NCBI RefSeq assembly: GCF_003334315.1 | Contig: NZ_QOWR01000032.1 | Source: Escherichia coli | GTDB taxonomy: Bacteria > Pseudomonadota > Gammaproteobacteria > Enterobacterales > Enterobacteriaceae | DNA length: 50,212 nt | Reading direction: 5' to 3' (one strand) | In this document: positions 3,456-20,520 of the stretch, in pieces | Numbering within the stretch: the first letter of the stretch is position 1 | How the letters are laid out: each line of letters opens with the position of its first letter | The notes under the pieces: generated by a model | Told to the model about the DNA's origin: nothing | Seen by the model: the letters and a program-made list of their open reading frames with translations, nothing else | Databases searched by the model: none | Translations under genes and position numbers: made by a program

Positions 3456-4848
<1,393 letters not shown>

Positions 4849-12226: not shown

Positions 12227-12374
12227 TGCCGGATGCGGTGTTAACGACTCATCCGCGTTGACATGAAAAGACGCGTTAGGCGTCGTATCATGCAGCGCTT
12301 GTCGGATGCGGCGAGTGCCTTATCCGACCTACATCGATGATCCGCGTAGGCCTGATAAGCGTAGCGCTTCAGGC
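12227..12374. repeat. REP/BIME cluster (at least three REP-like palindromic units) between ydhP and sodB
   Basis: GCCGGATGCGG..., TGTCGGATGCGGCGAGTGCCTTATCCGACCTAC and GTAGGCCTGATAAGCGTAGCGCTTCAGGC resemble the E. coli REP consensus (GCCGGATGCGGCG...TTATCCGGCCTAC) in alternating orientation. Confidence 0.7.
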
Positions 12375-14603: not shown

Positions 14604-14619
14604 TCCGTCCTGCAATACT

Positions 14620-14652
14620 GACGGATGCGAACGGGCATCCGTCAGTCCTTTC
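14620..14652. terminator. Hairpin between convergent grxD and lhr
   Basis: GACGGATGC-GAACGG-GCATCCGTC 9-bp stem directly after the grxD stop, followed by AGTCCTTTCTC. Confidence 0.5.
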
Positions 14653-14653
14653 T

Positions 14654-17600
14654 CTATCCCCAATCCAGCCCTTGTGGCGAACTTGAAAATCCCGCCTCAC
14701 GCAGCAGCATAAACATCGGCGTTTGCCGGACCGGTAGATCATTCACTTCTGTTAGCGTAAAGCGCAGCCGTGGTTCGCGACGCAGTGCGGTAGTCAGCGC
14801 GTGGAAAACCTCTGGGGCGAGTAATTCCTCTTTTTCCTGCCAGACCAGCATTTTTTTGCCACCTTGCGCCAGATAGAGTAACAATTTGCCGCCAGAAACG
14901 ACCACCAGCGCACCCGCCCGACGCGTTGGAACCAGCGTTGCCGGATGTGCAGGCCAGGGCAGAAGATTTCCCCACACATTAGCCGGATCGTTGGCAGAGA
15001 GCGCCACTGGTGTATAGTGGCGCGTTTGCGTGGCTTGTGTCGCCAGATCGCGCAATCGGTCAATAGTCAGACGTTCAGCGAATTGCGCGCCACCCAGACC
15101 TTCTACAAAACGACCTCGCATAATTCGCCCGGAGTCTTCCATACTTCGACAAAGCGTTTGCATCGATGGAAACCCGCCAGGGATATTTTCGGCTATCACC
15201 GCCTGACGACTGATGATGCCGTAGCGGTCGAGCATATTTTCCGCCAGCGCCAGCATCCTTTCGGTATCGTTTAGTGGCTCCACCTGCAATAACGACCAGC
15301 GTCCAGCCAGATTTGGTGTGTTGTAAGATACCCGCGGCGAGACGGGTTGCGCATAGACAGGACGTCCACGACGAGCCCGGTGACTGCGGCGAGTTGAGGT
15401 GCGTGCGTTGGAACTGCTGCGGGTGAGGGCGCGTAACGGTGCCCAAATGTCGCTGGTGATGACGCCTTGCCAGACCAGCGCCCATAACGCCTCTTGCAGG
15501 GCAGAGAGATCAACCGATTCGCCGATTTTGTCGCGTATCCGTTGGCTGATTTGTTGTGCAAACCAGGCTCCTCCGTCAGCCAGAACAGCGACTATCGCTT
15601 GTTGCAGCGCCGAACGATTCGCCTGATCCGCTTCGGCGGGAGTGAACGATTCTGCAGCATATTCCTGTAGATGCAGTGCCACCAGGCCGTCATCTTCACC
15701 CAGTTTTTTTTGCCCCGACCAGATAACCGCACCGGTTGCCAGTAATTCATCGAGCATTTCTGACGAATAGTCGCGTACGCGGGCAGGCAGGATCTGGCTT
15801 TCCCAGAGTGAGGCGGGTAAACCGACTCCGGCAAGCTGTTCGATCACCCGCATCACGCCATCTACGCCCTCATAAACGCCTGGCGATGTTGAGGCAAAGA
15901 GCGCCGGGCTACCATCGGTGGCGGGTAATACGCCCTGACGTTCCAGCAGCAATCGCGCATAGGTCGTGGCTGCAACGGGACGCGTCGCTTCTCTGGCGGC
16001 TTGCAGCGAGCGCAAACGCAGACGACGAAATACTTCATCGCTCACCCAGATGTCTTGTTGCAGATTCATCACCAGACCCTGTTCACGCAGTTGCTGAAGC
16101 TGCTCTTCGACAATGGCAATACCGAGACTAAACTCATGAGCCAGTTGTTCAGCCGTGACCAGAGCATGAGCCCGGAGATAGCGCAGAAAGAGGTCGCGAA
16201 GCGGGTAACTGACTCTATGTAAATAAATCTCTGGCAATGACTCTGGTAGTCGTACGCCGAGGGCATCACGCAGCCTGGCGGCATCATCCATACAGGCAAG
16301 ACGCTCCTGTCCGCTAATCATCGCTGGGAAGATTCGTTTTACTGCAAGAAGATTTTCCAGATACGACGCAACCTCTTCACTGCTGCCTGTATGCCGTTGC
16401 GCCAGGTCTTCAACGGTCATTGGCCCCAGTTCGCGCAGCAGGTCGAACAATCCTTCTTCACCTTTCGCTCTTCTGCCAGGAGCCAGTCGTTGCAACTCTT
16501 CTTCCACCTGGCGAATGACCTGCGGGTCGAGTAATTCCCCCGGATCGACCTGTCCGAGTAGATTGCGCAGTAACTCGCTGTCCAGCGACAGTACGGATGC
16601 CCGGCGCTCTGCCAGCGGGGCGTCGCTCTGGTACATAAATTCCGCGACATAGCCGAACAATAAACTTGTGGCGAAAGGCGAGGGCGTAGTGGTCGTTACA
16701 TCGGATATTTGAATTTCGCCACCGTTCAGGCGACGCATCAAACGTTCCAGTGCGGGAAGATCATAAACATCTTGCAGACATTCGCGTAGGGTTTCGAGAA
16801 TGACCGGAAAATCCGGATATCCCTGAGCGATTTCCAGCAACTGACTGGCGCGCAGCCGTTGTTGCCAAAGCGGGGTGCGATGGCCCGGAGTGCGCCCCGG
16901 CATTAATAATGCCCGCGCGGCGCATTCGCGAAAACGGGCGGCGAAAAGTGCCGAGCTGCCTACCGCCTCGCGGACAATTTGCAGCAACTTTTCTGGTTCA
17001 AACAAAAAAATCGCGGCATCGGGCAATTTACCATCGGTGTCAGGAATACGTGCAACAATGCCGTCATCACTGGCGACCACCGACGCGTCAGCGCCCCATA
17101 GCGCATGTATTCGCCCGGCAATCGCCAGCGCCCAGGGTTCATGCACCCGTCTTCCATAGGGAGAGTGCAAAATAATACGCCAGTCACCAATTTCATCACG
17201 GCACCGTTCGAGGACCAGATGGCGACTCCCCGGAACGATGCCCGTCGCGTTGCGCTGCTCCTCAATCAACCCCTGAATATTGGCGATCGTATTTTCTTCT
17301 GCCAGCCACGGGGGAATAGTCCCGGAAAAGAACGCGCCATCCGCCAGCAAATGAAGAAAATCGCCGATCATCTCGCCTAATTCAGCCGGACGTCCGTTAC
17401 CTTCACCACGCCAGAAGGGGAGCCGGGCAGAACGACCCGGAGCAGGAGTCACAATCACCTGATCGCCGGTGATTTGCTGGATCCGCCATGAGGTAGCGCC
17501 GAGAGTGATAATGTCGTTCACCCGCGACTCATATACCATCTCCTCATCCAGTTCACCCACCCGCCGCGAACCGGCCTTTTCTTCACCTTCGGGTAATAAC

Positions 17601-19270
17601 ACGCTATACATGCCACGATCCGGAATGGTGCCGCCGCTGGTAACCGCCAACAATTGAGCGCCAGGCCGGGCGGTCAATATCCCGGTCTCCCTGTTCCAGA
17701 CCAGTTTGGGGCGAAAAGCAGAAAAATCGCCAGAGGGATAGCGCCCGGAAAGCATATCCAGCGTGGCGTCAAAAACACGTCTTGGCAGATCTTTCCACGG
17801 TGCGGCACGGCGTACGCGGGAGTACCATTCGTCTACCTGTAATGCATCCATCGCCGCGGCGGCAACGGTTTGCTGCGCAAGGACGTCGAGAGGATTATGC
17901 GGTGGTGTCAGGTTTTCCAGCCTGCCTGCGAACATACACTCTACAATGACTGCGGAATCGACTAAATCACGCCGGGTACGGGGGAAAAACAGCCCTTTAG
18001 ATACACCGCCAACCTGATGTCCGGCGCGACCAATGCGTTGTAACCCACTGGCAACAGAAAGCGGCGTTGCCACCTGAATCACCAGATCCACCGCGCCCAT
18101 ATCAATCCCCAGTTCAAGACTGGAGGTTGCGACCACGCAGCGTAATTCACCCGATTTCAGCGCCTGTTCGGTGATTGCTCGTTGTTCTTTAGAGACGGAG
18201 CCGTGGTGTGAGCGGGCAATAAAAACGTCGCTACTTTGTACACGGTTAGAGGTTGCGCCGGAGGTCGACTCGAAATGGGCCGCATCAACGGCGATAGACG
18301 GGGAACGCTGTAAGCGTGCGGCGTAAAGCTCATTTAATCGTGCTGTCAGTTTTTCCGCCAGCCCCCGCGAATTAGTAAAGACAATGGTCGAGCGATGGCG
18401 CAACACTTCATCAAGGATACCCGTTTCAATATATGGCCAGATGGAGCCTTCCCGGCCGGCATGGCTGTCTTCGCCGGTGCCGCTGGCGACCGATGAGACA
18501 TCATCCATATTGGCGACCGGTACGACAATTCGTATCTGCGGATGGTGCATTGCGGGCGGGTTGACTACCGTAACCGGGCGATCGCCACCAAGAAATGCTG
18601 CCACATCGCTGGCTGAGCGCACAGTGGCAGAAAGGCCAATTCGCTGTGCTGAGGTGTGGAGCAGCGCATCGAGCCGCTCCAGACTTAACGCCAGATGCGC
18701 ACCACGTTTACTGCCCGCTACCGCGTGGACTTCATCAATAATTACCGTTTCGACGCCGCGTAGCGTTTCGCGCGCGCGGGAGGTCAGCATCAGATAGAGT
18801 GATTCGGGTGTGGTGATCAGAATATCCGGCGGATTACGGGTGAGTTTGCTGCGTTCCTGTGCAGGCGTATCGCCAGTACGGATCCCTACGCGAAGATTGA
18901 CTTCCGTTTCGCCGCGCCGCCGCCGTTCATCGGCAATACCCTTCAACGGGATCTGCAAGTTGCGCTGAACGTCGGTGCCCAGGGCTTTTATCGGTGAAAT
19001 ATAGAGGATGCGTGAGGTTTTACGCTTATGCGCCTCGCGGGTATCTTCGCCGCCTTCGCGGAAGAGCCGATCGAGGGCGTAGAGAAATGCTGCCAGCGTT
19101 TTCCCGGAGCCGGTCGGTGCAATCACCAGCGCATGTTCGCTTCGCGCCGCCACATGCCAGGTTTGCGGCTGGACAGCGGTCGGCTGTTTAAAGGCGCGAA
19201 GAAACCAGTCGCGGGTCGCCGGTGAAAACACGTCCGGCAGGAGCGATGAAGGGTCTGGATTATCTGCCAT
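14654..19270 (-). CDS. lhr: Lhr, large ATP-dependent helicase (1538 aa)
   Basis: Single 1538-aa ORF; N-terminal superfamily-2 helicase motifs (PTGSGKT Walker A, DEVH box); length equals K-12 Lhr; immediately downstream of rnt. Confidence 0.93.
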   Translation of the reverse strand: MADNPDPSSLLPDVFSPATRDWFLRAFKQPTAVQPQTWHVAARSEHALVIAPTGSGKTLAAFLYALDRLFREGGEDTREAHKRKTSRILYISPIKALGTDVQRNLQIPLKGIADERRRRGETEVNLRVGIRTGDTPAQERSKLTRNPPDILITTPESLYLMLTSRARETLRGVETVIIDEVHAVAGSKRGAHLALSLERLDALLHTSAQRIGLSATVRSASDVAAFLGGDRPVTVVNPPAMHHPQIRIVVPVANMDDVSSVASGTGEDSHAGREGSIWPYIETGILDEVLRHRSTIVFTNSRGLAEKLTARLNELYAARLQRSPSIAVDAAHFESTSGATSNRVQSSDVFIARSHHGSVSKEQRAITEQALKSGELRCVVATSSLELGIDMGAVDLVIQVATPLSVASGLQRIGRAGHQVGGVSKGLFFPRTRRDLVDSAVIVECMFAGRLENLTPPHNPLDVLAQQTVAAAAMDALQVDEWYSRVRRAAPWKDLPRRVFDATLDMLSGRYPSGDFSAFRPKLVWNRETGILTARPGAQLLAVTSGGTIPDRGMYSVLLPEGEEKAGSRRVGELDEEMVYESRVNDIITLGATSWRIQQITGDQVIVTPAPGRSARLPFWRGEGNGRPAELGEMIGDFLHLLADGAFFSGTIPPWLAEENTIANIQGLIEEQRNATGIVPGSRHLVLERCRDEIGDWRIILHSPYGRRVHEPWALAIAGRIHALWGADASVVASDDGIVARIPDTDGKLPDAAIFLFEPEKLLQIVREAVGSSALFAARFRECAARALLMPGRTPGHRTPLWQQRLRASQLLEIAQGYPDFPVILETLRECLQDVYDLPALERLMRRLNGGEIQISDVTTTTPSPFATSLLFGYVAEFMYQSDAPLAERRASVLSLDSELLRNLLGQVDPGELLDPQVIRQVEEELQRLAPGRRAKGEEGLFDLLRELGPMTVEDLAQRHTGSSEEVASYLENLLAVKRIFPAMISGQERLACMDDAARLRDALGVRLPESLPEIYLHRVSYPLRDLFLRYLRAHALVTAEQLAHEFSLGIAIVEEQLQQLREQGLVMNLQQDIWVSDEVFRRLRLRSLQAAREATRPVAATTYARLLLERQGVLPATDGSPALFASTSPGVYEGVDGVMRVIEQLAGVGLPASLWESQILPARVRDYSSEMLDELLATGAVIWSGQKKLGEDDGLVALHLQEYAAESFTPAEADQANRSALQQAIVAVLADGGAWFAQQISQRIRDKIGESVDLSALQEALWALVWQGVITSDIWAPLRALTRSSSNARTSTRRSHRARRGRPVYAQPVSPRVSYNTPNLAGRWSLLQVEPLNDTERMLALAENMLDRYGIISRQAVIAENIPGGFPSMQTLCRSMEDSGRIMRGRFVEGLGGAQFAERLTIDRLRDLATQATQTRHYTPVALSANDPANVWGNLLPWPAHPATLVPTRRAGALVVVSGGKLLLYLAQGGKKMLVWQEKEELLAPEVFHALTTALRREPRLRFTLTEVNDLPVRQTPMFMLLREAGFSSSPQGLDWG

Positions 19271-19322
19271 TAACGCTATTCCCCGTGAATATCATGCAGG
19301 ATGCGTGGAATAGCCTCACTAT

Positions 19323-19356
19323 AGATGCCTGAATCATTGCATGTCATCAGGCATCG
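19323..19356. other. Inverted-repeat hairpin in the rnt-lhr intergenic spacer
   Basis: GATGCCTGA-(14 nt)-TCAGGCATC, a 9-bp perfect stem between the rnt stop (19363) and the lhr start (19270). Confidence 0.4.
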
Positions 19357-19362
19357 ACTCGA

Positions 19363-20010
19363 TTACACCTCTTCGGCGGCAGATAGCGGCCAGCCTCCCA
19401 GACGTTTCCAGCGGTTGACGATTTCACAAAACAGCACAGCAGTGCGTTCGGTGTCGTACAGCGCGGAGTGCGCCTGGGTGCTGTCGAAGTCCATGCCAGC
19501 GGTCTGGCAAGCCTTTGACAATACGGTTTGTCCGAGTGCCAGCCCGGCCAGTGCAGCAGTGTCAAAAGTGGCGAAAGGGTGGAACGGGTTACGTTTCAGT
19601 GAGGCGCGTTCTGCGGCGGCCATCATAAAGCTGTGATCAAAATTGGCATTGTGCGCCACCATAATGGCGCGGTTACAGCCGCTCGCTTTAATACCTTTAC
19701 GTACAACTTTAAAAATTTCGTGCAGCGCCTCGTATTCGCTGACCGCGCCGCGATCGGGATCGTTCGGGTCAATGCCGTTGAAGGCGAGGGCTTCTGGTTG
19801 CAAATTTGCGCCGACAAATGGTTCGACGTGGAAATGTAATGTGGTGTCCGGCATCAGCCAGCCTTGTTCATCCATTTTCAGGGTGATGGCGGCAATCTCA
19901 AGCAGCGCATCGGTTTTGGCGTTAAATCCGGCTGTTTCAACATCGATCACAACAGGATAAAAACCACGAAAACGGTCGCACAGACCGGTAAGTTGAGCGT
20001 TATCGGACAT
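19363..20010 (-). CDS. rnt: Ribonuclease T (215 aa), DEDDh exonuclease
   Basis: ORF 215 aa [44 protein letters not shown]...; length and N-terminus match RNase T. Confidence 0.93.
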
Positions 20011-20112
20011 CTGATTCTCTTAATACGGATAAATTGCAGCGCGCATTATGACAAATATTACTTGTCGATGCAGTAAAGATGCGGGCGCGATGAGTTCACG
20101 CCCGGCAGGAGA

Positions 20113-20520
20113 TTAGTTGCCCAGACCGCGACCGGCGTCTTTCTCTTCGATTAACTCAATTTTGTAACCGTCCGGATCTTCCACAAACGCGATAACCGTA
20201 GTACCGCCTTTTACCGGACCCGCTTCACGGGTCACGTTACCCCCGTTTTGACGGATTTTTTCGCACGCTTCAGCGGCGTTATCTACGCTAAGCGCGATGT
20301 GACCATAAGCAGTGCCGAGTTCGTATTTATCCACGCCCCAGTTGTAGGTCAGTTCAATCACCGCTTCTTCGGTTTCCGGGCCGTAGCCAACAAACGCCAG
20401 TGAGTATTTGTATTCCGGGTTTTCGCTGGTACGCAGCAGTTTCATGCCCAGCACTTTGGTATAAAAATCGATGGAGCGTTGCAAATCGCCAACGCGCAGC
20501 ATGGTATGAAGAAGACGCAT
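20113..20520 (-). CDS. gloA: Glyoxalase I (lactoylglutathione lyase), 135 aa
   Basis: ORF 135 aa [47 protein letters not shown]... Confidence 0.95.

Follow-up and report, generated by a model that had tools for sequence, protein, structure and literature searches.

The paradigm for an intercistronic stem-loop that stabilises mRNA is the REP sequence between malE and malF. For REPs that lie close to a stop codon (<16 nt), reduced translation of the preceding gene has also been reported (Liang, Rudd and Deutscher 2015, as cited in PMC12306157). A structure with features of both is found in Escherichia coli between rnt, which encodes RNase T, and lhr. The window, meaning the whole stretch of DNA that was analysed, comprises 50,212 nt of K-12 sequence and carries both genes on the minus strand. 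The open reading frame of rnt (20010..19363, with the stop codon TAA at 19365..19363) matches the TIGR01298 equivalog with 383 bits and is annotated as rnt in MG1655, and that of lhr (19270..14654) encodes 1538 aa and matches PRK09751 (Lhr) with 3406 bits. The spacer between them (19362..19271) has 92 nt and reads, in the RNA sense, UAA-UCGAGUC-GAUGCCUGA-UGACAUGCAAUGAU-UCAGGCAUC-UAUAGUGAG-GCUAUUCCACG-(18 nt)-CGGGGAAUAGC-GUUA-AUG. The original prediction held that the two genes are co-oriented and probably co-transcribed; the orientation is as it said, and rnt and lhr are described as co-transcribed in the literature (PMC8301817). A 331-nt query over the feature was 100% identical to MG1655 and gave a single match in each of 5426 complete E. 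coli genomes.

The inverted repeat that had been predicted for this spacer, perfect over 9 bp, is present. Its arms, referred to here as those of hairpin 1, occupy 19324-19332 (GATGCCTGA) and 19347-19355 (TCAGGCATC) on the plus strand, are complementary at 9/9 positions and are separated by 14 nt; in NC_000913.3, the element lies at 1729002-1729033. In the RNA, the 5' arm GAUGCCUGA (19347..19355, minus strand) starts 7 nt past the rnt stop codon and leads into the 14-nt loop UGACAUGCAAUGAU (19333..19346). The 3' arm UCAGGCAUC (19324..19332) is followed by UAUAGUGAGG, with no U tract. The total length is 32 nt, and five of the nine pairs are G-C. When folded alone as RNA, hairpin 1 reaches -14.6 kcal/mol, with z = -3.1 relative to dinucleotide shuffles; the 121-nt region around the hairpins is unexceptional as a whole (z = -0.7). 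A scan for perfect 9-bp arms with loops of 3-20 nt found 44 inverted repeats in the 50-kb window (about 21 distinct loci), compared with 4.35 +/- 2.5 in dinucleotide shuffles. At this shuffle rate, chance alone would place only about 0.008 of them in a 92-nt spacer, and hairpin 1 is thus a stable and non-random structure. A change of the 3' arm from UCAGGCAUC to UCACCGAUC would break the stem. Rfam covariance models, applied with a permissive E-value to 18800-20200, gave a sole match inside lhr, at chance level (E = 3.9).

Within E. coli, the element is remarkably uniform. A 40-nt segment with hairpin 1 was found by blastn (word size 11, E-value limit 10) in every one of the 5426 complete genomes and at no second place in any of them, which rules out a multi-copy repeat. 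The K-12-type haplotype, identical over the 40 nt, is carried by 4713 genomes, and three loop variants account for 357 (GC-to-AU), 197 (U-to-A) and 127 (A-to-G). These four common haplotypes cover 5394 of the 5426 genomes and differ only at four loop positions, so the loop holds all three common polymorphisms and the 5' arm is invariant in at least 5394 genomes. Among the other 32 genomes, one (L097) has an A-C mismatch in the stem, the only such genome seen. What had been called a conserved-looking hairpin is indeed conserved, with common variation limited to the loop. The GC-to-AT variant (19339-19340; L095 and L096, 357 genomes) changes ATGACATGCAATG to ATGACATATAATG and creates a perfect TATAAT within the loop; strain EC19, noted beside this variant, has an lhr annotated as a pseudogene with an internal stop.

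Many strains have lost lhr and kept the hairpin. An internal 1-kb fragment of lhr is absent from 1042 of the 5426 complete genomes. Strains ECONIH2, D8 and MS20673 retain only short 5' remnants of the gene (ECONIH2 also about 126 nt of its 3' end), and such remnants are annotated as "endonuclease" or "ATP-dependent helicase" pseudogenes (for example, L002 3211-3439). In the lhr-losing strains, the spacer and both of its hairpins are still intact, which suggests that hairpin 1 serves rnt; its survival may also simply mirror the recent date of the deletion.

Comparison between species points to constraint on the whole spacer. Of the 92 spacer positions, 6 distinguish K-12 from E. albertii, and the divergence of the two at four-fold sites is 0.24 in rnt and 0.42 in lhr; the spacer is thus 4-6 times less diverged than four-fold sites. 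A more distant comparison is provided by L086, a metagenomic, Escherichia-like lineage with a four-fold divergence of 0.50 from K-12 and a spacer that is also 92 nt long. Here, the stem positions of the two hairpins are identical at 30/34 (88%) and the other positions at 31/58 (53%; Fisher p = 6e-4), with neutral divergence at approximately 50%. The stems have been kept by selection. E. albertii, L086 and the Citrobacter-type loci, which comprise C. amalonaticus, C. farmeri and the metagenomic L100 and L101, also have a stem-loop whose core is GCCUG/CAGGC, and in each it begins 5-8 nt past the stop codon of rnt. The 5' and 3' arms of these homologues are AAUGCCUG and CAGGCAUU in L086, UGCCUGAUAA and UUAUCAGGCA in C. 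amalonaticus, GGCCUGGUAA and UUAUCAGGCC in C. farmeri, and GCCUGAUAGC and GUUAUCAGGC in L100 and L101. The distance between the arms varies from 4 to 16 nt. In E. fergusonii, only GCCUGA is kept, and another hairpin is found at the same place.

Among the lineages, outer stem pairs change from G-C to A-U and from U-A to G-C. Pair counting for hairpin 1 gave 89.5% of cells paired, with five invariant core pairs and three outer pairs that each show one double change; three double changes were matched by 37 of 500 shuffles. Covariation is, on these alignments, suggestive and not compelling. Independent insertions of REPs, that is, homoplasy within the REP family, could also mimic both conservation and compensation. 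A second hairpin in the spacer (19275..19314, minus strand), identified by folding and by comparison of seven lineages, consists of a 5' arm GCUAUUCCACG at 19314..19304 and a 3' arm CGGGGAAUAGC at 19285..19275 that includes the lhr Shine-Dalgarno sequence GGGGAA. It folds with -13.6 kcal/mol, and 95.7% of cells are paired over the seven lineages, a value reached by only 19 of 500 shuffles. Its changes are A-U to G-C in E. fergusonii and A-U to a G-U wobble in L086 and strain D8. Hairpin 2 probably keeps the translation of Lhr low.

The arms of hairpin 1 are REP-like. They read TGCCTGATG...TCAGGCA (RNA: TGCCUGAUG...UCAGGCA) and match the canonical REP GCCTGAAGCGCTACGCTTATCAGGC-CTAC at 12350-12374, between sodB and ydhP, which is the only canonical REP in the window. 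In Citrobacter, the corresponding sequences come close to a canonical REP (GCCTGATAACGC..GCTTATCAGGC). By motif comparison rather than by profile, TGCCTGA(T) and TCAGGC are common to hairpin 1, the REP at 12350-12374 and the Citrobacter versions; the upper stem and the loop are unrelated. Hairpin 1 is extragenic, lies within a transcribed spacer and forms a palindromic stem-loop of 32 nt, within the range of 14-40 nt for REPs. It occurs in a single copy (5426 genomes), and its flanks are GAGUC and UAUAG in place of the GTAG/CTAC that is recognised by RAYT and is present in the canonical REP of the window and in an Enterobacter REP (L027). For these two reasons, hairpin 1 is called REP-like or REP-derived here, and not a REP. 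The feature record of NC_000913.3 holds zero REP features, the canonical REP at 12350-12374 being absent as well, and is thus uninformative on REP annotation. True REPs are inserted directly after rnt in Enterobacter and Cedecea. In Enterobacter sp. MGH 24 (L027, about 3655-3690), a canonical REP, GTAG-GCCGGGTAAGCGCAGCGCCACCCGGC, abuts rnt, and its GTAG supplies the TAG stop codon of the gene, which has 219 codons there.

The position of lhr after rnt is itself unusual. When the rnt loci of 80 species were compared, lhr followed rnt in 0 of 78 species, i.e., all but E. coli and E. albertii. In this set, rnt is usually followed by a bidirectional terminator, AAAAAGCGACC-loop-GGTCGCTTTTTT, and by the convergent gene grxD; the strict terminator pattern was found in 28/78 and a generic hairpin with a T run in 51/78, and in Klebsiella, rnt adjoins grxD. 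An lhr gene between rnt and grxD is seen in E. coli, E. albertii, L003, E. fergusonii, C. farmeri, C. amalonaticus, L086, L100 and L101, and the lhr of Phytobacter is located elsewhere. No trace of the ancestral terminator was found in E. coli at either end of lhr, and the spacer and lhr thus behave as a cassette that replaced it. At the distal end, just past the lhr stop codon, the inverted-repeat scan and Term-seq identify a 12-bp perfect palindrome (ACTGACGGATGC/GCATCCGTCAGT, 14617..14646). This is the grxD terminator on the opposite strand, with Term-seq 3' ends at 1733706/7 (minus strand), and it stands in place of the AAAAAGCGACC..GGTCGCTTTTTT terminator of lhr-less species.

In E. fergusonii, four-fold divergence from K-12 is 0.14 in nemA, 0.06 in gloA, 0.60 in rnt, 0.51 in grxD and 0.38 in sodB, and Lhr is only 73% identical. 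Judging from these values, the rnt-lhr-grxD block of this species is one that was exchanged with a distant lineage. Between gloA (1756-2163) and rnt (2266-2913) of its locus (L083), there is a sharp recombination breakpoint. The spacers of the Citrobacter-type loci have a further feature, a strong LexA box of the form (T/C)ACTGTATATTTGACCAGT(A/C). It is present in all four (L084 2905-2924, L085 2907-2926, L100 572-591 and L101 617-636) with 15-16/20 consensus matches, about 20-35 nt past the REP-like hairpin, and its sequence implies that lhr would be under SOS control there. In the Lhr papers PMC8053096 and PMC10953399, LexA appears only in connection with the LexA-independent mycobacterial pathway.

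Taken together, the reading that is tentatively preferred here is that hairpin 1 is a REP-like, and probably REP-derived, RNA stem-loop between two cistrons, and that it shields the rnt portion of their joint transcript or uncouples it from the lhr portion. The spacer would have arrived with the lhr cassette, displacing the strong bidirectional terminator between rnt and grxD. As the stem has no U tract, RNA polymerase is proposed to read through it and to continue into lhr. Hairpin 1, 7 nt past the rnt stop codon, would then most likely block 3'-to-5' exonucleases, and the rnt portion of the message could persist when the 4.6-kb lhr portion has decayed or its transcription has ended prematurely. 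In this way, the output of RNase T may be uncoupled from that of Lhr and held above it. A stem so near to the stop codon may also hamper terminating ribosomes, as for stop-proximal REPs. Separately, hairpin 2 would hold lhr translation low by pairing with the lhr Shine-Dalgarno sequence. The barrier, the uncoupling of the two outputs and a possible influence on the translation of rnt are inferred from anatomy, conservation and analogy. In SMRT-Cappable-seq, operons that begin at the promoters of rnt, gloA or nemR include rnt but do not extend over lhr ("ShorterEnd"), which fits an lhr output below that of rnt; the missing coverage may also reflect under-sampling of 5-kb transcripts. Against a barrier, Term-seq in three conditions has no 3' end at hairpin 1, where a stable decay intermediate should show, though rnt is weakly expressed. 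In the searchable literature, no experiment on hairpin 1 was found, and the supplement files of Cappable-seq 2016 and RepRanger 2025 contain no entry at the locus. The original prediction was thus sound in placing a real, non-random and conserved hairpin between reportedly co-transcribed genes, and a processing site or exonuclease barrier is plausible; the partial terminator that it also offered is not supported. Features beyond those that it named are the REP-like arms, the overlapping promoter-like hexamers, the hairpin that pairs with the lhr Shine-Dalgarno sequence, and the arrival of the spacer together with lhr where a terminator used to be. Considering anatomy, conservation and analogy, it is most plausible that hairpin 1 sets rnt expression relative to that of lhr through RNA stability and not through termination.

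The same likeness to REPs is open to a neutral explanation, in which hairpin 1 is a decaying REP remnant that has no measurable regulatory role and hitch-hiked with the lhr cassette. Its persistence would then be due to low divergence within Escherichia, together with REP-type sequences that recur at the site. The single copy, the short stem and the missing GTAG/CTAC are what a remnant would show, covariation is weak, and neither a 3' end nor a transcription start site (TSS) is mapped there. In addition, E. fergusonii does without hairpin 1, and REPs have been inserted after rnt repeatedly in other genera. However, a sequence that is free to decay is difficult to reconcile with a spacer diverging 4-6 times less than four-fold sites, with stems conserved at 88% and non-stem positions at 53% when neutral divergence is about 50%, and with common E. 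coli polymorphisms that all fall outside the stems. Even E. fergusonii has a substitute hairpin rather than nothing. A role-free remnant is, on this evidence, unlikely.

Hairpin 1 also overlaps a sequence that resembles a sigma-70 promoter (19318..19347, minus strand), and the palindrome could be incidental to, or a modulator of, an internal promoter for lhr. The -35 hexamer ATGACA (19347..19342) begins at the end of the 5' arm and runs into the loop, the 3' arm lies within the 18-nt spacer, and the -10 hexamer TATAGT (19323..19318) comes after the stem. The match is in the same direction as lhr, 48 nt before its ATG, and agrees with the consensus at 10/12 positions; a score of at least 10/12 is reached only twice in the window (100 kb of strands). 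The other site, TTGGCA-16-TATAGT at 14991-15018 (plus strand), is inside lhr and antisense to it. Neither hexamer varies among E. coli, L003 and E. albertii, and the common loop polymorphisms spare the -35. The LexA box in Citrobacter-type spacers also implies a promoter between rnt and lhr in that group, and the lhr of Phytobacter stands alone, away from rnt. As in a sigma-70 promoter, the hexamers are at the required spacing of 16-18 nt; unlike in an established one, no TSS was detected downstream of TATAGT and the hexamers are not kept in L086, where each has 4/6 matches while the stems persist. Neither Kim 2012 nor SMRT-Cappable-seq, both limited in sensitivity, reports a TSS in the rnt-lhr spacer, and the nearest is that of rnt at 1728318/9. 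Furthermore, the literature has rnt and lhr co-transcribed, the 18-nt spacer is suboptimal, and transcription from this site would begin inside the 5' arm of hairpin 2, which is conserved. An internal lhr promoter is therefore distinctly unlikely. The ATG of ATGACA also opens an upstream ORF of 23 codons (19276-19347, minus strand; MTCNDSGIYSEAIPRILHDIHGE and a stop codon) that ends 5 nt before the lhr ATG. It was rejected as a coding gene: when K-12, L003 and E. albertii are aligned, all six of their substitutions are non-synonymous and at codon position 1 or 2, and the frame is not kept in L086. From its sequence, a functional peptide is unlikely, and the ORF may have a sequence-independent coupling role.

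The main idea of the original prediction was a partial terminator, which would here be a terminator or attenuator, intrinsic or Rho-assisted, that halts some polymerases between rnt and lhr. In its favour, attenuation of transcription has been reported for REP elements (PMC12306157), full-length reads that begin at three upstream TSSs span rnt and not lhr, and the homologous hairpin of L100 is followed by AUUUUUCUU and scores as terminator-like. A true terminator also exists at the same position in lhr-less species. Compared with that rnt/grxD terminator of lhr-less Enterobacterales (AAAAAGCGACC-loop-GGTCGCTTTTTT, Rho-independent), hairpin 1 has the same place just past rnt and five G-C pairs of nine, but it differs in its missing U tract, its long loop and the lack of a mapped 3' end. 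Specifically, it is followed by UAUAGUGAGG, its loop is 14 nt as opposed to 3-8 nt in Rho-independent terminators, and it was called neither by an intrinsic-terminator scan nor by a separate hairpin-plus-T4 test. An intrinsic terminator is ruled out by the absent U tract and the negative scans. The experimental tables agree. Published Term-seq data (Adams et al. 2021) assign no 3' end to rnt in three conditions, and on the plus strand of the reference, none is listed from the gloA terminator (1728279) to the end of lhr, in a thresholded list from which weak ends could be missed. The Term-seq check that accompanied the original prediction, followed here through these published tables, therefore yields no 3' end at the rnt-lhr junction and speaks against the partial terminator that it proposed. 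There is also no Rho-dependent sense 3' end listed in lhr, and the SMRT-Cappable-seq table has no termination site at 17289xx-17291xx. Attenuation at hairpin 1 is thus highly unlikely.

Two further proposals combine the palindrome with the promoter-like hexamers. In the first, they form a regulated internal lhr promoter in Escherichia, with the arms acting as a repressor operator or as a structure switched by read-through. This would be a functional replacement of the Citrobacter LexA box and would mean that Lhr is conditionally induced in E. coli by a non-SOS route; no LexA box (CTG-N10-CAG, consensus TACTGTATATATATACAGTA) was found at 19171-19470 on either strand, and the proposal as a whole has a very remote chance of being correct. 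Scarcely credible is the second, in which hairpin 1 is a DNA operator for a dimeric regulator on two 9-bp half-sites, 23 bp centre to centre and flanking the -35-like hexamer: dyad symmetry is perfect over the promoter-like site and the Citrobacter equivalent of the spacer has a LexA operator, but the E. coli spacer and its flanks have no LexA-type box, we know of no regulator with the arm motif, arm changes in other lineages keep pairing and not a fixed half-site, and arm distances of 4 to 16 nt between lineages are incompatible with fixed geometry.

Hairpin 1 matters little beyond its locus. If the preferred role as a protecting or decoupling RNA stem-loop is true, it would be another REP-type stem-loop that tunes the relative output of two genes of an operon, in this case those for the exoribonuclease RNase T and for Lhr, a repair helicase-glycosylase. 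The comparison of lineages is more useful than the hairpin. It concerns a cassette that replaced a terminator, was exchanged between lineages by recombination and is missing from roughly one in five complete E. coli genomes, and the Citrobacter LexA box offers a testable lead on when Lhr is needed.

Hairpin 1 can be compared with three described systems. Like REP elements, it is extragenic, transcribed and about 30 nt long, it is placed ahead of the next gene at no more than 15 nt from the preceding stop codon, and its arms match the REP arms GCCTGA...TCAGGC. In contrast to REPs, it is single-copy, has no GTAG/CTAC and carries an AT-rich 14-nt loop instead of a GC-rich upper stem, so that relative to classical REPs, the stem is short and the loop is long. 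Although it is not a canonical REP and resembles stop-proximal REPs by position alone, its stem at 7 nt is inside their limit of <16 nt. The stem-loops of the malE-malF type differ from hairpin 1 in that it has no mapped 3' end, and the likeness to them comes from anatomy: hairpin 1 is likewise stable, has no U tract and follows the upstream cistron of an operon with a less-expressed distal gene.
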